From: a virus
Reading direction: 5' to 3' (one strand)
DNA: 64,000 nucleotides
Virus record (IMG/VR): IMGVR_UViG_3300024999_000075
Coordinates: 1 to 64,000 of that record
Below, piece by piece: positions 2,055 through 18,275 of this stretch. Each line of letters begins with the position of its first letter. Position 1 is the stretch's first letter. Below the pieces are notes generated by a model. The model did no database searches. It saw nothing but the letters and a program-made list of their open reading frames with translations, and was not told where the DNA came from. A program made the position numbers and the translations under genes.

Positions 2055-4736
2055 ATGATCCTTCTGACAGAGTTAACCTCAAACCAAGGTACAATTTGTA
2101 AGAAATACAGTGTAAATCCTGATGGCTCACACACTGTAGTAGCTGCACCAGCTATATATGATGCTACCAGTAAAACAATCCCCCTAGAATTTGGAGCTGT
2201 TGGGGAATACCTCAACAACCTTGCCAAATCTCCGGAGAAATGCATCCTCTTGGGTGTCCATGGCAATGTTGATGAGGAGTTTCAACTTACGACCGAGGCT
2301 AATGTCTCAGATGGAAAAATAGCTCGGACCAAAGAATTCTTCGATTGGTGCAACTCTGGCAACATTTCTCTTGTATATTTAGATTTCGATTCTAACGCCT
2401 CAGATGCCCTCAGACAGCGTTTCCTATCTGAGCTGGACATCGTGTTGCGTGATGCTCTGATCGGTGAAACAAGCAGCCAAAGAACGCAAATTTGCCGATG
2501 GTTGAGACCATCTACTTCAGCCAGTGTTGAAATCAATGGAAAGCAAGGCACAGGTCTCCACGTATTCCTCCCAGTCAAGAAATGCAACAATGAGCTTGTC
2601 AAGCTTATCCACCGTTGGTGCTGGCTCACCTCTCCCGATTACAGAGGATACAAAGTCAGTAAAGCCGGTTCAATCACCTCTGAGAGTCTGATTGACCCTG
2701 CTGTTGGTTCTCCTGAACGAGTGGTTTATTCGTCGGACGCTATAGTAGAAGGTCCAGAGGAATATTACAAGCACATTGCTCGTACCTGCTCCTACCAACC
2801 AGGCGGGGTCTTGGATGCTGAAATCGCAATTGGTATTTTAAGAGAACTAACAGTTAAATTTGAGAAGGATTGGGCCACCTACAAGAAGATCAAGGAAAAT
2901 GCGCCTGACGTTATTACTGCTAAAACTGCATGGATTTCAGAACAAACTGAGAAAAATATTCAGTCTGGCATGACTGTGAAAGAGGCAAAGAAGTCAGCAC
3001 AAAGCCTCAGTAATTCCATACTGTTGTCTAATGTTATATTAAAGAGGGTTGGTGGCGAGGAGGTCCGTGTAAGTGAGATCCTCTCAGATCCTGATAAGTG
3101 GTTACAAAAAGATAAATTTAATGACCCAATTAAGTGTGAGTCAGAGCGAAATGTTGGTAAGATTATGGGTCAGGACAAAGCCCCATTCCTGCATAGCTTC
3201 AGCCATGGTGGAGTTAAATATGCTTTGCAGTGGACTTATGAAGATCTATTGGAGTGGATTGAAACAGCTAATGAGGATGAAATTGATGATTGGTTTTCAA
3301 TCCATGCTGCTAATACCGATGCTAGTGATATACAACTAGAAAAGCTTAGCAAAGCCGTAGCCAAAAAAGTTGGTGTGAGTGTAGTTGCTGTTCGTAAGGA
3401 AGTAAAGGCAAAGCTAGCTGAAAAAACGTCTGAGAATGACGTAGGTGATGAGATTGACCCCAAGTGCATGTATGGCGTCACAGTTGCTCCAGATGCAAGC
3501 CACGGCGATATTATGGAGGATTACATCAGAAATACTGGTGATTGTAAAACTTTTGGTGGTAGTGTCTACTCTTGGGAAGGTGGCACCATCTGGCAACAAC
3601 ACACCCAAAGTGTTATTAAGAAAAATCTTTGGACTTACTATAATCATGTTGACCATTGCCAAATTAAAAGTGACTACTTAGCTCTGGCGGGTATGGTAGT
3701 TAATGATAGTGATGTTAATGTGTTACAGTGGAATGAAGCATTTGGTTTCCCTTGCTCTGATGGTTTCTACCTTATCAAAGATGAGAAAGTTGAAAAGGTG
3801 GAATATACTAAAGACCTGATGTGTAGATTCAGAATGGGAATCAAACCTGATTTTAGTATGAAAACCCCTCTGTTTGATAAGATATTAGCCAATATTGAGA
3901 ATCCAGTGCTATTCCAACAATTATTTGGGCTTGCAGTCAGTGGCTACCTTAATAAAGCCCAGAAAGTTATGGTAATGAAAGGCACAGGAGGAGCAGGCAA
4001 AGGCACCATTGAGAATGTTATGATGGCCATGCTCCCCACTAGTCGGGTTACTACTGTATCTTTAGATCAGCTCAATCAAGATTATTTCAGAGCACATATA
4101 GCACAATCCAGAGTTAACTTCATGTCAGAGGTCAGAACAGGTAAAGGCTCCAGAAAAATTGACATTACCGGGCTGAAGGAGATCACAGGCGGGGGAATAA
4201 TTACTGCTAGATTCATTTACAGCTCCACATTTAATTTCAGATCCACTTGCAGCTTTGTTATTTCCATGAATGACAACTTTGCTCTCTCCCCAGTTGGACC
4301 AGAGACTGAGAGAAGGTTTGGCCATTCTATGGTGCAGTTTACTAAGGGTGACGCTCACCATGAAATTATTGGTTTGGCTGATATGATTATTGCTGATGAA
4401 CTCCCTGGAGTTTTGGCTTGGGCTATAGAAGGTGTAAAGATGTACTTTCAGCATGGGTTGGAAGATAGCTTAAGTATGGAGTTGTACAAGAGATGGGAGC
4501 TTAGTACAGATCCAGTATCTCTATTCCTTGAGGAAAATGTTAACATCACAGGTAGTGCTAGAGACTATGTGGACAGAGCCGAGATGTGGAAGAGATTTCA
4601 AGATTTTTGCTCAAAAGGCGGATATGGAGAGTGGCGAAAAGGTGATTTCTTTGCTGATTTGGATAAATATTCAAAAATAGGCCCAATCAAGAAGGCTGAC
4701 GGAATCTATAAAGTTTTTCGAGTTCGATGGAGTTGA
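2055..4736 (+). CDS. Primase-helicase (AEP-like N-terminus, D5/P4-type SF3 helicase, C-terminal winged helix)
   Basis: VYLDFD and GLHVFLP AEP-like motifs; Walker A GTGGAGKGT; LKEITGGGIITAR; TDPVSLFLEE...MWKRFQDFC C-terminus. Confidence 0.9.
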   Translation: MILLTELTSNQGTICKKYSVNPDGSHTVVAAPAIYDATSKTIPLEFGAVGEYLNNLAKSPEKCILLGVHGNVDEEFQLTTEANVSDGKIARTKEFFDWCNSGNISLVYLDFDSNASDALRQRFLSELDIVLRDALIGETSSQRTQICRWLRPSTSASVEINGKQGTGLHVFLPVKKCNNELVKLIHRWCWLTSPDYRGYKVSKAGSITSESLIDPAVGSPERVVYSSDAIVEGPEEYYKHIARTCSYQPGGVLDAEIAIGILRELTVKFEKDWATYKKIKENAPDVITAKTAWISEQTEKNIQSGMTVKEAKKSAQSLSNSILLSNVILKRVGGEEVRVSEILSDPDKWLQKDKFNDPIKCESERNVGKIMGQDKAPFLHSFSHGGVKYALQWTYEDLLEWIETANEDEIDDWFSIHAANTDASDIQLEKLSKAVAKKVGVSVVAVRKEVKAKLAEKTSENDVGDEIDPKCMYGVTVAPDASHGDIMEDYIRNTGDCKTFGGSVYSWEGGTIWQQHTQSVIKKNLWTYYNHVDHCQIKSDYLALAGMVVNDSDVNVLQWNEAFGFPCSDGFYLIKDEKVEKVEYTKDLMCRFRMGIKPDFSMKTPLFDKILANIENPVLFQQLFGLAVSGYLNKAQKVMVMKGTGGAGKGTIENVMMAMLPTSRVTTVSLDQLNQDYFRAHIAQSRVNFMSEVRTGKGSRKIDITGLKEITGGGIITARFIYSSTFNFRSTCSFVISMNDNFALSPVGPETERRFGHSMVQFTKGDAHHEIIGLADMIIADELPGVLAWAIEGVKMYFQHGLEDSLSMELYKRWELSTDPVSLFLEENVNITGSARDYVDRAEMWKRFQDFCSKGGYGEWRKGDFFADLDKYSKIGPIKKADGIYKVFRVRWS

Positions 4737-6710: not shown

Positions 6711-7064
6711 CTAAAAAAGTGAGGAGTTGAACAGTCCGCCTACCATTTTGACTTTGGTGGGCTTAGATCGCTTGGTCGATCTTTTAAAGCTCTTGAAACA
6801 TGCTCTTGCGGTGATTGTGGATTCTTTCAGCAGGTAAGGGACAGGAACATAGGTTCCAAATTTTCTCGCTCTTGAATCTTTCTTGTTGAGCCAGAACCAA
6901 GCCCATTTATGACTTGGTAAGCCCTGGAAAACACAATCATACTTGTATACTTCTATGTTCCTCACCATCTCAAACGGTAGCAGAACACACTCGGGATGCT
7001 CTTTGATGAATCCCTCAGGACTCGGAACAATCGCTCCACGGTTTTTATATATTACGACATTCAT
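6711..7064 (-). CDS. Hypothetical basic early protein
   Basis: GGAGG RBS, 117 aa. Confidence 0.7.
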   Translation of the reverse strand: MNVVIYKNRGAIVPSPEGFIKEHPECVLLPFEMVRNIEVYKYDCVFQGLPSHKWAWFWLNKKDSRARKFGTYVPVPYLLKESTITARACFKSFKRSTKRSKPTKVKMVGGLFNSSLF

Positions 7065-7108
7065 GATTTTAACCTCCCCGGATTAATTTAATTAGAACTA
7101 ATTAGAAT

Positions 7109-7159
7109 TTACTGCCTGCTTTCTGAAGGCGCAATTCACCTCCAGAAAGCAGGCAATAA
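7109..7159 (-). other. 21-bp RNA hairpin, candidate RNase III site
   Basis: UUAUUGCCUGCUUUCUGGAGG / CCUUCAGAAAGCAGGCAGUAA; both DNA mismatches are G-U on the minus strand; no clear U-tract. Confidence 0.6.
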
Positions 7160-7423
7160 CCTTTTCAGTTATTGCCTTTCGCTGTTTCAAAAATCCGTAT
7201 AATCAACATCTTATCACCCTGGATAAGGTATTGACCTTCACGAATTTTTGAACATATCGCACGTGCAATTTGCCTCACAGTGACGAATTCATTGTGTTGA
7301 ATTTTACCAGACCTTGCTTTGCTGGAACGTCGAAAATACTTTTTAATTAGAAGTAATTAAGATATTTTCCTAATTACAGCTAATTAAAAAGTATTTAATG
7401 AAATACTGAAATACTGGAATAAG

Positions 7424-7459
7424 AAAAAGCCTAGACAGATTTTTCCTGTCTAGGCTTTT
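7424..7459 (-). terminator. Intrinsic terminator (possibly bidirectional)
   Basis: AAAAGCCTAGACAG...CTGTCTAGGCTTTT. Confidence 0.8.
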
Positions 7460-7462
7460 GCT

Positions 7463-7726
7463 TTAGTCTTCATCAAGATTTTCTTCAAATGTCTCAAAGT
7501 TACACTTTGCGTCATTTGATGGTAATGCAATCTCATAGGTCATTGCATCAAAGCCCAATGTTGGAAAAGTATCAGTTATAATTCCACCTAGACTTTTAGC
7601 ATATTCCACCAATTTGTCCTCTCTTTCCCAACTACACGGACAAGAGATATACACTAAAGAGATGCTTTCTTTTATCTCTTTTATCTCTCTTTCTAACTCC
7701 TTAATTCTTTTAATCTTTTCTTTCAT
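7463..7726 (-). CDS. Hypothetical early protein
   Basis: GGGGTG RBS, short N-terminal coiled coil. Confidence 0.7.
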   Translation of the reverse strand: MKEKIKRIKELEREIKEIKESISLVYISCPCSWEREDKLVEYAKSLGGIITDTFPTLGFDAMTYEIALPSNDAKCNFETFEENLDED

Positions 7727-7790
7727 TTTTCACCCCATTAAATTTTAATTACAACTAATTGATATTCTAATTAGCTTCTAATTAATTCCC

Positions 7791-8548
7791 TTTGTCTCTC
7801 AGTTTTGAGCACTCCCTATATAGTACATAGAGAACTGCGATTTATTTCAAGCTGTCAATCAATGCCGCGATATCGGCGGATATTTCCGCTACTTCCGCGA
7901 CGATTTCTACTTTCGTTTTGCCGGTGTCCAAGCTGGCAAGGCGGGTGTTTAAAGCTTGCAAGGTATCAAACAGGGTAATTGATACTTCCGACTTTACTTC
8001 CACGTCTTCCGACTTTACTTCCACGTCTTCTGCAACGTCCGGCAATTCGCTTTTGCCAGAAACGTTTTTGGTCGGCTTACTTCGCATGGACGCCATGTTG
8101 TTGAAAACAACGCTGTTACGGAAACATCTTTTGGCAACCACGTTGCCAAATTGTAACCAGTGCTTTTTCACTAGCTCATTCCGGTCGGCGACTGTCAATT
8201 CTTCACTCCACAAAGATAGCTCATTCAACAAGATCATGCAGGACCACGCCTGGAGTGCTTGCCATCCACATGCCACCTTGCTTTTCCCCTTCCCTATGTC
8301 ACATTTTCTTTTCCATCCCTTCTGTGCATGACAGTAGGACGTAAAATTATCCATACACTCACTGGGAGCAGATACGGCGGAAAAATGAGCAATCAATTTA
8401 CTGGTTGCCAAGGAACCGGAAAAGGAACCCTCAATCTCGACTTCCACGTTAATAGCTTCAATTACATTAGATATATTCATAGTCATGGTAACACCCCTTT
8501 AATGATGATGATCATTAGTATCAGGAGCGCCCAAAACTGAGAGACAAA
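7791..8548 (-). repeat. 25-bp inverted repeat pair (7791-7815 and 8524-8548) bracketing the 214-aa ORF
   Basis: TTTGTCTCTCAGTTTTGAGCACTCC versus reverse complement TTTGTCTCTCAGTTTTGGGCGCTCC, 23/25 identical. Confidence 0.95.
7842..8486 (-). CDS. First gene of early operon, unknown function
   Basis: 214 aa, AAAGGGG RBS, internal 21-bp tandem repeat (EDVEVKS x2), helical C-terminus. Confidence 0.8.
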   Translation of the reverse strand: MTMNISNVIEAINVEVEIEGSFSGSLATSKLIAHFSAVSAPSECMDNFTSYCHAQKGWKRKCDIGKGKSKVACGWQALQAWSCMILLNELSLWSEELTVADRNELVKKHWLQFGNVVAKRCFRNSVVFNNMASMRSKPTKNVSGKSELPDVAEDVEVKSEDVEVKSEVSITLFDTLQALNTRLASLDTGKTKVEIVAEVAEISADIAALIDSLK

Positions 8549-8755
8549 TTTACACGTTTAGTTTATCCATTCCAAGAAAGATGATAACCGTACCTGCGAC
8601 CTGTACTAGCAAAGCGTTGACTATTAACAAGGTTTTCTTTCACTCTTATGTAACCGATAAACCGTAAAGAGTAACATTCACCTATAGACAGCAAGACAGG
8701 AGACTAATAGTTGGTTATCCAAGGAAGAGAGATACTTTGCAGAGGGGCAAAGACC

Positions 8756-8770
8756 GTTATCAAAGAGCAA
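8756..8770 (-). promoter_or_regulatory. boxA antitermination element
   Basis: TTGCTCTTTGATAAC resembles rrn/lambda boxA (TGCTCTTTAACA); followed by CTTTGC-CCCTCT-GCAAAG hairpin. Confidence 0.6.
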
Positions 8771-8859
8771 GAACTACAACCTCGGATATACACGATAGTA
8801 ACATACCATGCAACAACTATCTGAGCGCCTAGCCTATGGTGGCCAGGTACAATAGTATA

Positions 8860-8875
8860 TGCAAGGTGTATGCCA
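8860..8875 (-). promoter_or_regulatory. Sigma54-type -24/-12 promoter
   Basis: TGGCATACACCTTGCA with exact GG-N10-GC spacing; IHF-like TAACAACTACTTA at 8903-8915. Confidence 0.65.
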
Positions 8876-9582
8876 AGGTAACATACCTAATAATACTAAC
8901 AGTAACAACTACTTACATGTACACTATCTATATGTCAGGCTACTGTAGTGTGTCATATACAACACACTACACCACAACAACATAATAATAACATACACTT
9001 ATATACTGTGTCAATAAGTACACACTGTGTGATATACAACACACTACATGGTACATGGTATACCCAGCTAACAACACTACACTGTAGTACCATACACGTA
9101 ACACCATACCATACAATCGTATGCATAGAGTAACACGTATCACATAACAAGTGTTACATAGCCTAGCATAGTGGAGTACACCACTACTGATATCATCAAT
9201 ATGTATGTAGTGTATTGATGATATACGCAATATAACATAGTGGTTATTGATGATATCAACAGCCACAAAGTAGTACTTTAATGATATGAGTGTTATGCTT
9301 ATGAAGGTACAGGGTATGTCGTGCGGCGTGTGGCGGTGCCTTTATGCAACTTTATGGGGTCAAGGTATAAAGAAAAGTGTTATACTAGGCGTATACCGAT
9401 GCGTTGACGTTGACGTAAAGGCGGGGTACTAGATGCACCCTCTATACAGAGGACAAAATCTTAAAATAATATTAGTCCTTATAGTTACTTTTCTCTTGGT
9501 TAATATCAAAATTTATACTACAGTCAAGAAAATTGAACTTAAGGAAAATAACTTACCTCATAAACTCAAGAAGGAGAGCGCC

Positions 9583-12136: not shown

Positions 12137-12429
12137 TCGACACTAGGATCTCCGTTTCCAAGGAGCTGAAAGAGCATTACGACAAGATTATTGAGCGAAG
12201 AGATGCAATCCTTGGCGACCAAAACTCTGAGAACAAGGATCTCATTGGAATTCTCAATGCAACAACCACAATCATCAAAGAATTGTCCAAGATCCAGCAG
12301 GAATTGTATAATTCAGAGAAGTTTGCGATATTACAACAGATAATTGTGAATGTTTTGAAAGAATGTGATCAAGAAGTGGCTGATAAGGTGGTGAAAGCCT
12401 TAGAGAGGCGATATGAAGCAACTCTTTGA
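12124..12429 (+). CDS. Probable terminase small subunit
   Basis: Helical 101-aa ORF overlapping large terminase start; positional inference. Confidence 0.55.
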   Translation: MEELIDTRISVSKELKEHYDKIIERRDAILGDQNSENKDLIGILNATTTIIKELSKIQQELYNSEKFAILQQIIVNVLKECDQEVADKVVKALERRYEATL

Positions 12430-14125
12430 AAGCTTTTTGATCTCATTGAAGGCACAGTTGTCAGCTGACAGCTTGGATTACGCTAAGTTCATGACGGAAG
12501 AGACCTTCATTAATGGGAAACCGTTCTCATTTGAGGGTCACGATTTTCAACGCTATTGTACGGACTTAGTTCAAAACAATCCTGGTTGTACTTTCGTTAT
12601 AATAAAGCCATCCCAAATAGGAATGAGTGAGTGGGTTTATAGAATTATTCTCACTAAGATGGGAGTAATAGCAGGAAGTTCTGTTGTTCTCTCAATGCCT
12701 AGTTTACAAATGTCTAACGAAGTATTCAAAACAAGGGTAGCTAATGTTATACAAGAATCTCCTAAGTTAAGAGGACTACTTGATAAAGATGTTGATTCAG
12801 CATCAGTCAAAAGATTTGTAAATGGCAGCATAGCCTACAGCCTTTCAGGGTCTGAAAACTCAAAATCATCTCTGCTAAATAGACCGATTTCGACCATCGT
12901 AGTTGACGAAGTTGACAGGCAATCGCGAAAAGTTTATACTGGCTATCGCTCCAGGCAGACACACATAAACCCGAGGGATAGATGCACTATTCTCATATCA
13001 ACCCCCACAGTGGCAGACTTTGGTATAGACAGAGAAATAAAGGAATGTGGAATTATTCATGAGCCGCTGGTAGTCTGCCGTTGTTGTGGTAACATTTTCC
13101 TTCCAGACTATTATGAAGATATTGTCATCCCAGATTATAAAGAATCACTGTTGCTCATAACCAAATCCACAATATCTGGACTCAGAGTTGACGATGCTTA
13201 CTTGCGTTGCCCTGAATGTAAGGAAAACGCTGATCAGGATGAAAGACAGATAAAGTGGGTTGTTACAAGAAATGAACAATTCCCAGCTACAACAATAGGA
13301 GTAAGACTAAATCCTTGGGTTGCTCACTCCTTCATCAAACTACCAGACCTTATTAGAGCATCTGTAACATTCACATCCTATACCGAGTTCCTTCAGCAGG
13401 CCCTTGGAAAGACAGCACTTCTTAGTGATTCAGCTTTAGATAGATCTGTTTTTACCTTTAGTAGTGAACAAAAGCCAGAAGGAGTCCATATTTTTGGTCT
13501 AGATATGGGAAAACAATGTAGTTGGATGCAAGGAGTATTAAAGCACGACACCACTGTAAGGATTACCGAGTCAAAATTAGTACCCCTGAATGAGCTGGAA
13601 GAATTTCTTGAGCAGAAACATAAAGATTTTGCCTTCTCTTGTGGGGTGATGGATCAGCAGCCTTTCGCTGACATGTCCTATAGGTTGGTAAGAAAATACC
13701 CTAGGTTATACAGTTGCATTTATATCAACCCAACAACTCCCATCCCAGAACTTTACAAGATCAAGCAGAACGATAAATTTGGGGAATTAATTCGGCAAGT
13801 TGCTTTGAATAAGACCCTTGGATTTGATACTTTTTTTGGTATGCTTAATCATCAAGTAAGCTTCCAGACATCTGAATTAGATGGGACCATTCTTATGCAC
13901 TTCCTTTCCCTCAGAAAAGTTAGGGATTATACCAGGGGAGATGAAATCAATTATGCCTGGGTAAAAACAAGCCGAGAAGATCACTTCGCTCATTCTTATA
14001 TCTACCTCATGACAGCGGCTAAGTTGGCTATATCAGGTACTAATAGTACATTTGGAGCTATCCCTATTTGTATTGGGAAGATGAATGTGGAATTTCGGAG
14101 GCAACAGTTAAGAAAAAGAGCTTAA
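12413..14125 (+). CDS. terL: Terminase large subunit, lambda GpA-like
   Basis: IKPSQIGMSE Walker A, VVDEVDR Walker B, ISTPT, CxxC zinc motifs, GLDMG nuclease, DHFAHS. Confidence 0.92.
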   Translation: MKQLFESFLISLKAQLSADSLDYAKFMTEETFINGKPFSFEGHDFQRYCTDLVQNNPGCTFVIIKPSQIGMSEWVYRIILTKMGVIAGSSVVLSMPSLQMSNEVFKTRVANVIQESPKLRGLLDKDVDSASVKRFVNGSIAYSLSGSENSKSSLLNRPISTIVVDEVDRQSRKVYTGYRSRQTHINPRDRCTILISTPTVADFGIDREIKECGIIHEPLVVCRCCGNIFLPDYYEDIVIPDYKESLLLITKSTISGLRVDDAYLRCPECKENADQDERQIKWVVTRNEQFPATTIGVRLNPWVAHSFIKLPDLIRASVTFTSYTEFLQQALGKTALLSDSALDRSVFTFSSEQKPEGVHIFGLDMGKQCSWMQGVLKHDTTVRITESKLVPLNELEEFLEQKHKDFAFSCGVMDQQPFADMSYRLVRKYPRLYSCIYINPTTPIPELYKIKQNDKFGELIRQVALNKTLGFDTFFGMLNHQVSFQTSELDGTILMHFLSLRKVRDYTRGDEINYAWVKTSREDHFAHSYIYLMTAAKLAISGTNSTFGAIPICIGKMNVEFRRQQLRKRA

Positions 14126-16864: not shown

Positions 16865-17706
16865 GCGATTACGAGATCTTAGCCATCTCCCCTTCTGCGG
16901 AAGAAAGATACTTTGAAATCCAAGCAAAACTCATGTCCCTGACTCCAGAGATGATAAGTCAGGAGAAAGAGGAAGAACAATCCTACTTACTGGCAATCAA
17001 TGAGGGTGTGGCTGTTATCGACGTTTCAGGAGTCCTGACTAACACCAATTCTTACTGGAACAGATACTTCGGCGCTGTCTCCTACCCGGAAATCAAAGAA
17101 GCCTCCCAACAGGCAGTTGAGCAGGGTGTTGGATGTATTGTTTATCATTATGGTACTCCTGGTGGATCAGTCCGTGGAATGTATGACTGTGCTAATTTTA
17201 TCTCATCCCTCAAAATCTCAACTATATCTTTCACTGGATCTATGATGTGTTCTGCTGGCCTGTTCCTCGGGATACAAAGTAATCACGTATATGCTGATGC
17301 CTTTGCTGAGGTTGGTTCCGTGGGCGTAATTATGAAACTTTATGATAGATCTAAGTATCTCAAGGACTTAGGTATCAAACCAGAACGTTTCCGCTCTGGC
17401 GATCTCAAAGCCTCCGGCGATCCTGACTTTGCCCTGACCGACAAAGAGCGGGAACACATCAAGGAGCAGGTTATGACTTACGCTAGTAAGTTCTATGGCA
17501 TAGTCTCAGATGCTCGTGGGATTCCGCTGCCAGTCATGGAAAAATCTGGAATAACTTCAGGGAGAACCTTCATTGGGGAGCAGGCTTTGAAGGTCAATCT
17601 AGTTGATGGGATGAAATCATTTGATCAGGTAGTCCTAAAAGCTTATGGCTTGGCTAAAAATTACCTTGACAAGAATAGGCAGAGCAGTCTAAGCTATGTG
17701 AAATAA
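16861..17706 (+). CDS. S49-family prohead protease
   Basis: GTPGGSV, MMCSAG, VGSVGV. Confidence 0.9.
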   Translation: MSDYEILAISPSAEERYFEIQAKLMSLTPEMISQEKEEEQSYLLAINEGVAVIDVSGVLTNTNSYWNRYFGAVSYPEIKEASQQAVEQGVGCIVYHYGTPGGSVRGMYDCANFISSLKISTISFTGSMMCSAGLFLGIQSNHVYADAFAEVGSVGVIMKLYDRSKYLKDLGIKPERFRSGDLKASGDPDFALTDKEREHIKEQVMTYASKFYGIVSDARGIPLPVMEKSGITSGRTFIGEQALKVNLVDGMKSFDQVVLKAYGLAKNYLDKNRQSSLSYVK

Positions 17707-17729: not shown

Positions 17730-18275
17730 ATGAAAAAGAAGATCCTGTCTGAAGCTGCTTTGCAGGCTATGATGGCTACTGGTGATGAGCCCGTAGTACA
17801 GCCTACAGCTGAAGAGTTGGCTGAATTGGAAGCAAAGAAGGCTGAAGCAGATAAACTGGAAGCTGAAGCTGCTGCCAAGAAAGCCGAAAAGAAAGATGAT
17901 TGCGACTGTGATTGTGAGGAAGAGACTGCCAAAGCCATCCTTGAGCTTGAAGCTTCTCAGGCTGTCAACGCTGATCTCACCGCCAAACTCGCTGAAGCTG
18001 AAGCCAAGGCCACCCAGATTGAAGTTGGGGCTGAGGCTCTGAAGACCATTGTTGCCGGTCAGGTTTCTAAGATGCGGATTGGTCTGCGCTTTGCTGCGGT
18101 CGATATGAGTAAGTTCAGTATTGATGCTCTGGTTACTGAGTATGAGAATACTGCTGAAGCCTTCATGAAGGCGCTACCTGTGGGTTCTGTTGTGCCGGAG
18201 CCTAAAGTGGAGAAGCAGTCAGCTATTCAATCAAGCCACGATGCCGGAAGTTTTAAGGCACTGGGTTTCAAATAA
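17730..18275 (+). CDS. Probable scaffold protein
   Basis: Ala/Glu/Lys-rich coiled coil between protease and capsid genes. Confidence 0.65.
   Translation: MKKKILSEAALQAMMATGDEPVVQPTAEELAELEAKKAEADKLEAEAAAKKAEKKDDCDCDCEEETAKAILELEASQAVNADLTAKLAEAEAKATQIEVGAEALKTIVAGQVSKMRIGLRFAAVDMSKFSIDALVTEYENTAEAFMKALPVGSVVPEPKVEKQSAIQSSHDAGSFKALGFK

Follow-up and report, generated by a model that had tools for sequence, protein, structure and literature searches.

The first gene of a leftward gene block in an uncultured phage is enclosed by an inverted repeat whose two arms pair, on the coding strand, into a single unbroken RNA helix of 26 base pairs (bp). The phage is represented by IMG/VR virus record IMGVR_UViG_3300024999_000075, of 81,254 nucleotides (nt), whose first 64,000 nt form the stretch analyzed here (the window), and the gene is a minus-strand open reading frame (ORF) of 214 amino acids (aa). 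We observe the helix in the same place, yet with different sequence, around the homologous gene in five of five full-length loci from other metagenomes, which represent three further phage lineages. Judged from sequence, the mRNA of the enclosed gene most probably folds back on itself as a long double helix, a type of structure cut by RNase III. We assign a probability of about 0.6 to the specific reading that this helix is processed by RNase III and releases a one-gene message whose ends remain paired.

A long-range helix encloses the ribosome-binding site and the whole gene

At the DNA level, the repeat consists of two 30-nt arms (7791-7820 and 8519-8548) that are 87% complementary and separated by 698 nt. 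In the minus-strand (coding) sense, an uninterrupted run of 26 pairs, 23 Watson-Crick and 3 G·U, joins 8548-8523 to 7816-7791. All three transition mismatches of the DNA repeat become G·U on this strand; the one remaining mismatch, located at the inner end, is of the G/A transversion type. An original prediction, made from the DNA letters before any database search, had described a 25-bp core with two mismatches that turn into G·U pairs only on the minus strand; this description is correct, and one more U·G pair extends the core. The same prediction held that the arms bracket the ribosome-binding site (RBS) and the complete ORF, and this is borne out: enclosed by the helix are a 36-nt spacer with the Shine-Dalgarno sequence (8500-8492), the whole ORF (8486-7842), and 25 nt after the stop codon.

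Among the 18 inverted pairs of at least 20 nt found within 3 kb of each other in the window, these arms form the only pair that is more than 150 nt apart and more than 80% complementary. Their 17-nt core occurs in the window only in the two arms, compared with 0.34 occurrences expected even with up to 3 mismatches, and in the full 81,254-nt record the arms match each other only. The remaining 18 kb of the record contain one other long-range repeat (81%; 17205-17231 and 18006-18032 of locus L024), which we did not count as a second bracketing stem, as one of its arms lies inside a coding region.

The duplex energy of the helix is approximately 6 standard deviations below that of dinucleotide shuffles. 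Folding the minus-strand transcript from 8850 to 7750, as the original prediction had proposed, places the helix in the minimum-energy fold, and a predicted transcript of 1,418 nt retains 25 of the 26 pairs in its own minimum-energy fold, the helix having a mean pair probability of 0.95. No Rfam family matched the window at gathering scores, and the region 7000-9500 gave only three sub-threshold chance matches.

Compensatory changes preserve the helix in four lineages

Relatives were obtained from a family-alignment scan of JGI metagenome contigs, which yielded seven loci, five with the full gene (L017 to L021) and two cut inside it (L022 and L023). These loci and the window fall into four lineages: the window with L022 (98% identical), L017, L018 with L023 (same 5' arm), and L019 with L020 and L021. 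We count four lineages rather than six loci because L019, L020, and L021 have identical arms. Three other collections gave no relatives: blastn of 7400-9500 had no match in INPHARED, and neither the ORF nor the family alignments had a relative in IMG/VR or in genome_contigs. Four exact matches of the 17-nt core in IMG/VR were rejected as chance because none extends past the core; none of the records that carry them encodes the 214-aa protein (L007 left out). The closest viral relative, G001, whose terminase is 85% identical, was unusable for comparison, since its contig breaks exactly in this region.

The original prediction expected covarying arms around the orthologous ORF in related phages, and they are present in all five full-length loci. 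In each of these, the gene is flanked at the DNA level by a repeat of 28 to 29 nt with arms about 715 nt apart, and the numbers of contiguous pairs in the window and the five loci are 26, 32, 29, 26, 26, and 26. By lineage (window, L017, L018, and L019), the helices measure 26, 32, 29, and 26 bp and include 3, 5, 1, and 0 G·U pairs, respectively. Each 5'-arm base was placed with its partner in the columns of an arm alignment, and columns paired in at least three lineages were counted. Of 26 helix columns, 16 show compensatory changes, 4 show one-sided changes (all to G·U), 6 are invariant, and none is broken.

The wobble pairs add a strand-specific signal. All nine wobble positions (3 + 5 + 1 + 0) read G·U on the coding strand and A·C on the other, and seven of the nine account for every transition mismatch in the repeats called at the DNA level. 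One wobble column, TG in the window as well as in L017, could go back to a shared event, leaving eight independent events; if either direction were equally likely, such a bias would arise by chance about once in 256 cases. The longest helix is correspondingly 26, 32, 29, and 26 bp in the sense direction versus 17, 15, 22, and 26 bp in antisense, the latter being shorter in three of the four lineages. Explanations at the DNA level (recombination sites, terminal repeats, paired operators, or gene conversion) predict arms that evolve together but no strand bias, and the wobble bias therefore speaks for RNA, as the original prediction had argued from the window's mismatches. Taken as sequence evidence, this is good support for selection acting on the coding-strand RNA.

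Predicted transcripts of 1.1 to 1.5 kb from the four lineages give mean pair probabilities of 0.95 to 0.998 for the helix, with 25 of 26, 32 of 32, 29 of 29, and 26 of 26 pairs in the minimum-energy folds. The distance from the inner end of the helix to the ATG is fixed (36, 35, 36, and 36 nt), with the Shine-Dalgarno sequence unpaired, while the distance from the stop codon to the 3' arm varies (25, 54, 11, and 11 nt). Two adjacent pairs, G-C and U-A, are invariant and occupy positions 12-13 of 26, 16-17 of 32, 16-17 of 29, and 13-14 of 26, placing them at or no more than two pairs from the helix center in every lineage. This central location fits an enzyme with two-fold symmetry.

A local hairpin that would compete for part of the 3' arm had also been described. 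It exists at 7838-7809 (-12.1 kcal/mol), yet it is no better than shuffles (z = -1.5). L017 has its own local alternative, stronger than that of the window (z = -2.8), and L018 and L019 have none. In the predicted equilibrium, the long helix wins over the local hairpins in all four lineages.

The gene order of L019 is that of the window: terminase, divergent region, the enclosed gene, small ORFs, a homolog of a 117-aa ORF of the window, and primase. Gene and helix were therefore inherited in place and not inserted independently. A separate observation concerns L022, which lacks a short stretch between two GGGT microhomologies (L022 positions ~920-940; window ~8493-8425). Its loss removes the start codon and about the first 17 codons of the enclosed gene and retains the 5' arm; L022 could be either a natural deletion variant or an assembly artifact.

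Promoter, leader, and downstream elements

A promoter-like block upstream of the gene is kept across lineages (Table 1), with TATTGT or TATTAT at the -10 position. It fits a sigma70-type -35/-10 arrangement with a 16-nt spacer and also has a sigma54-like GG-N10-GC spacing, and the sequence alone does not decide between the two. By its position about 294 nt upstream of the 5' arm, this block is the likely start of a transcript that would include both arms. The leader between block and arm is 294 nt long in the window and 156 or 422 to 424 nt in relatives, and is otherwise not alignable. Downstream, the first strong terminator lies past the next gene (7459-7425); with a weak terminator-like hairpin also present in the leader (8752-8735), both arms may, but need not, share one transcript.

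The whole 5' arm must be transcribed because compensatory changes reach its outermost pairs. For this reason, a promoter lying directly at the 5' arm (TTGGA, a 17- to 20-nt spacer, and TAnnnT) was rejected as the main start. The TTGGA motif (~8575-8571), 17 to 20 nt upstream of AAACGTGT, is itself kept in all lineages despite the unconserved leader.

The original prediction further read the leader as carrying a boxA, which together with the stem would form an expression cassette mimicking an rRNA (rrn) operon. The boxA is not supported. The 13-mer at 8757-8769 has two mismatches to the consensus, and the window contains five such matches versus 2.55 expected, a level reached by 13 of 100 shuffles. 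There is no exact match in 23 loci, and the leaders of relatives have no boxA within two mismatches (one match with three mismatches in L017, none in L018, L019, or L023); the consensus applied is that of Escherichia coli. Because the boxA is at chance level and absent from relatives, the proposed rrn-like cassette reduces to its stem.

TAATTA-type palindromic boxes follow the 3' arm directly and are in the same position in L017, L018, and L019. Such boxes precede each small leftward gene, at 7743-7787, 7334-7396, and 7085-7108 in the window and, in relatives, at L017 3-14 and 1006-1017, L018 4439-4467, and L019 3396-3443 and further; L017 has one just upstream of its promoter block as well. 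These boxes may serve as operators or translational operators.

Table 1. Features of the helix locus and its surroundings (window coordinates unless a locus is named)
Feature	Position	Strand	Remarks
Promoter-like block (ATGTTAC, TTGGCA, 16-nt spacer, TATTGT)	8849..8884	minus	Kept in L017, L018, L019, L021, L022, and L023
Promoter-like block in relatives	L017 24-60; L018 3184-3220; L019 2154-2190; L021 2133-2169; L023 3433-3469
Long untranslated leader	8549..8842	minus	Contains boxA-like 13-mer (8757-8769) and weak terminator-like hairpin (8752-8735)
AAACGTGT	8552..8559	minus	Conserved throughout the lineages; located at the 5' end of the 5' arm or just upstream of it
5' arm of long-range helix	8523..8548	minus	26 nt; pairs with 7791-7816
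Unpaired spacer from helix to ATG	8487..8522	minus	36 nt; holds the Shine-Dalgarno sequence
Shine-Dalgarno sequence	8500-8492	minus	In the unpaired spacer
Enclosed ORF, 214 aa	7842..8486	minus	Inside the helix
Local hairpin competing for inner third of 3' arm	7809..7838	minus	Weak, not conserved
3' arm of long-range helix	7791..7816	minus	26 nt; starts 25 nt past the stop codon
TAATTA-type palindromic boxes	7743..7787	minus	Directly after the 3' arm, before the next gene (7726-7463)
Primase	2055-4736		In the window
Large terminase	12413-14125		Tailed-phage gene in the window

Proposed processing by host RNase III

We propose the following course of events. Transcription would begin at the conserved promoter-like block near 8884-8849 and proceed through the 294-nt leader, the 5' arm, the 36-nt spacer with the RBS, the 214-codon ORF, and finally the 3' arm. 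Completion of the 3' arm would let the two arms zip into the unbroken 26-bp duplex (26 to 32 bp in relatives), closing a loop of about 700 nt that holds one translatable cistron. A perfect duplex of this length would be a substrate for host RNase III, and a double cut near the helix center, probably around the conserved central pairs, would detach both the leader and the downstream genes. The product would be a one-gene message with a 5' untranslated region (UTR) of about 50 nt and with its ends paired in a half-helix of about 12 to 15 bp. As the effect of processing we favor stabilization of this message and its uncoupling from the leader, with control of decay being equally possible. The circularized unit that the original prediction had entertained is not supported; apart from an ATP-dependent DNA ligase, no ligase was found.

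To our knowledge, RNase III is nearly universal in bacteria. An idealized substrate of the E. coli enzyme is described as a 22-bp duplex with two-fold symmetry (PMC3867540), and the helices of 26, 32, 29, and 26 bp all exceed this criterion of approximately 22 bp. In E. coli, paired RNase III cuts are reported 16 to 1,080 nt apart (PMC6212723), and in Bacillus subtilis the enzyme is reported to cut long-range mRNA duplexes of 10 to 36 bp with arms up to 505 nt apart (PMC11780869). It is because the duplex exceeds the 22-bp substrate, and because long-range mRNA duplexes are documented, that we propose a cut by the host enzyme.

Several points weigh against this reading. All seven sequencing runs listed for the stretch are DNA, and the record, which is about 57% complete, has no match to RNase III (Ribonucleas_3_3). 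The leader's weak terminator-like hairpin (8752-8735) and an additional consensus promoter at 9014-8985, stronger but not conserved, make the transcript boundaries uncertain. Local hairpins are able to compete for the 3' arm in two of the four lineages. As for the comparative evidence, it draws on only four lineages, of which L019 has no wobble pair and is uninformative on strand; transversion mismatches occur at two helix ends (inner in the window, outer in L019); and with this number of lineages, concerted evolution of the two arms at the DNA level keeps a residual probability.

The alternative that survives best is that the helix forms in the mRNA and is left uncut, clamping the ends of the cistron and controlling the access of other nucleases or of ribosomes. 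All of the structural evidence fits such a clamp equally, and the fixed distance of 35 to 36 nt between helix and ATG suggests that geometry around the initiating ribosome matters. There are also precedents, namely, the 14-bp interaction that links the 5' UTR of hbs to its 3' UTR, described as modulating RNase Y cleavage (PMC5737220), and the UTR-UTR pairing of icaR (PMC3868564). However, the helix is unbroken over 26 to 32 bp, more than the 22 bp given as sufficient for the E. coli enzyme (PMC3867540). Bulges or internal loops of a sort that would limit cutting are absent from it, and it leaves out the Shine-Dalgarno sequence, unlike in icaR. We therefore regard an uncut clamp as a serious but rather unlikely alternative to processing by RNase III.

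Readings of the arms as DNA elements

Other explanations place the function of the arms in DNA. The arms might be the terminal inverted repeats of a small mobile cassette, with the ORF as cargo and the RNA pairing as a by-product. The ORF is indeed richer in G+C than its flanks, and the terminal repeats of mobile elements also coevolve. Such a cassette would nevertheless be present in a single copy in the record, its ORF has no transposase-like domain, and the flanks of the arms show no direct repeat that would mark a target-site duplication. In relatives, the gene occupies the same syntenic slot, after the promoter block, before the homolog of the 117-aa ORF, and between terminase and primase. 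Together with the strand specificity of the wobble bias, this makes a mobile cassette very unlikely.

Still less probable is an invertible DNA segment (inverton) that flips the gene relative to its promoter, even though inverted repeats of 26 to 30 nt flanking a 700-bp segment with one gene and its RBS are what such an element would look like. No protein of the Resolvase or Phage_integrase families is encoded in the 81-kb record. The possibility of inversion had been raised in the original prediction, and we observe a single orientation of the gene relative to the promoter block or leader in eight of eight assemblies (the window, L017 to L019, and L021 to L023 with the promoter block, and L020 with only 109 nt of leader). 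Contigs of three groundwater runs span or cover the segment without any strand-changing joint, although contigs can hide rare or minor forms. A bias of nine wobbles out of nine toward one RNA strand is likewise not expected of DNA recombination sites.

Finally, the idea that the arms are two DNA operator copies that let one regulator loop out the gene is the least credible of all: two identical inverted sites would coevolve with their binding protein, and AAACGTGT, which adjoins the 5' arm, is conserved, but the complementarity is gapless over all 26 to 32 positions, far beyond the usual length of an operator, the lineages share little of the arm sequence (6 of 26 columns invariant), and the wobble bias has no reason at the DNA level.

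The enclosed protein

The 214-aa protein appears, from sequence searches, to be a member of a rare, phage-only family without an assigned function. Six homologs with 53 to 66% identity were found among 5.8 billion clusters, and a profile search recovered only nine clusters among 1.84 billion representatives. The protein has no match to a Pfam, PHROG, or PADLOC family, and a profile search of the PDB returned no relative (best E value, 0.025, to designed helical repeats); the earlier suggestion of a host-takeover or antidefense protein thus finds no support. Atlas comparisons point to unnamed viral clusters (0.89 to 0.90), with DUF3102 (0.80) and phage repressor c (0.79) as weak leads, and the Atlas model of the protein is poor (pLDDT, 0.48). 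Its distant relatives match no Pfam family, apart from a 980-aa repeat protein that we regard as spurious. A zinc site was considered and dropped because the cysteines common to close homologs are not kept in distant ones. The region of the enclosed ORF (7850-8450) has a G+C content of 0.47 to 0.49, compared with 0.31 to 0.40 in the flanking 1 kb.

Genomic setting

The record is linear according to IMG/VR, its completeness is estimated at approximately 57% by CheckV, and the sequencing runs that contain the stretch are groundwater metagenomes. Besides the genes listed in Table 1, tailed-phage genes in the window include those for a portal protein, a major head protein, and a family-A-type DNA polymerase. 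The small minus-strand genes, running from 8486 down to approximately 5934 and headed by the enclosed ORF, diverge from a set of genes on the plus strand, which begins at 9433 and leads to the terminase. Its position at the head of this block suggests that the enclosed ORF is an early gene.

Assemblies are unstable in the intergenic region between the two divergent blocks (9114-9290). In two runs, contigs end at 9114, or begin at 9219 after unlike sequence, and show many differences at 9258-9370. Repeats are present at 8944-9048 and 9188-9258. The contig of G001 also begins and ends in the equivalent region (L009 and L011). An origin, a packaging site, or a hypervariable spot could account for this.

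Farther along the leftward block, 7066-7451 has no canonical ORF and is 70% identical to G001. It contains a 63-codon stop-to-stop frame (7356-7165, minus strand) with no ATG, GTG, or TTG near its start; the elements that flank the block are a 21-bp hairpin (7109-7159) and a two-way terminator (7425-7459). The block may be a small RNA or else a gene whose start is unusual. Close to the record's end, a 234-aa ORF on the minus strand consists largely of five-residue repeats of the pentapeptide-repeat kind (L024 16483-17187, equivalent to 79483-80187 of the record).

Significance and relation to known systems

If the helix is cut, phages would be reusing the geometry of rRNA excision for protein messages, and the element would be a compact, portable RNA part for insulating and stabilizing one cistron. 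The helix also marks the enclosed rare-family protein as a gene whose dosage or timing is under unusually careful control by the phage. At less than even odds, we tentatively suggest that phages in general use helices holding a gene in their loop, in a manner so far undescribed, to package single early messages. In such a scheme, a duplex bracketing the cistron would be recognized by host RNase III or by some other reader of double-stranded RNA and would convert a long primary transcript into a monocistronic mRNA that is end-paired and has a lifetime of its own, the locus described here being one independent family.

A full-text literature search that left out most subscription journals and supplements found no published helix bracketing a phage protein gene. 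The closest parallel in geometry is given by the leader-trailer stems that flank 16S and 23S rRNA in rrn operons and are cut by RNase III. As in those stems, one long-range helix formed from both flanks loops out a complete functional unit, and by analogy the arrangement appears to be that of the rRNA stems applied to a protein gene. The helix length of 26 to 32 bp also lies in the range of RNase III (PMC3867540 and PMC6212723). Unlike the rrn stems, the loop here holds a protein gene with a free RBS, the span is about 700 nt, and no conserved boxA was found.

Cellular long-range RNase III duplexes, as reported for E. coli (PMC6212723) and B. subtilis (PMC11780869), likewise pair across hundreds of nucleotides of one mRNA. 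The phage helix differs in that it brackets exactly one cistron with its RBS, at a fixed 35 to 36 nt from the ATG, and in that it is perfect and kept by compensatory change across phage lineages; its cleavage is, for its part, what we infer.

In hbs of B. subtilis and icaR of Staphylococcus aureus, the two UTRs of a single message pair with each other over the full length of the ORF, and this pairing is described as governing nuclease action (PMC5737220 and PMC3868564). The helix described here is longer than that of hbs (26 to 32 bp compared with 14 bp, where RNase Y is the nuclease modulated; PMC5737220), and it leaves the Shine-Dalgarno sequence free, whereas the pairing in icaR is described as covering it and repressing translation (PMC3868564).

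The early polycistronic mRNA of bacteriophage T7 is described as having five RNase III processing signals (PMC3867540). In the manner of T7, host RNase III would serve the phage to release single messages from a long early transcript, with the first gene after the promoter as one of the units. In T7, the signals are intergenic local hairpins that have internal loops and receive single cuts; here, in contrast, one helix is built from the two flanks of a gene. Set against these systems, the element probably belongs to a known kind, that of a long-range RNA helix serving as an RNase III site, and what is new is a perfect helix that brackets one phage cistron together with its RBS and is kept by compensatory change.

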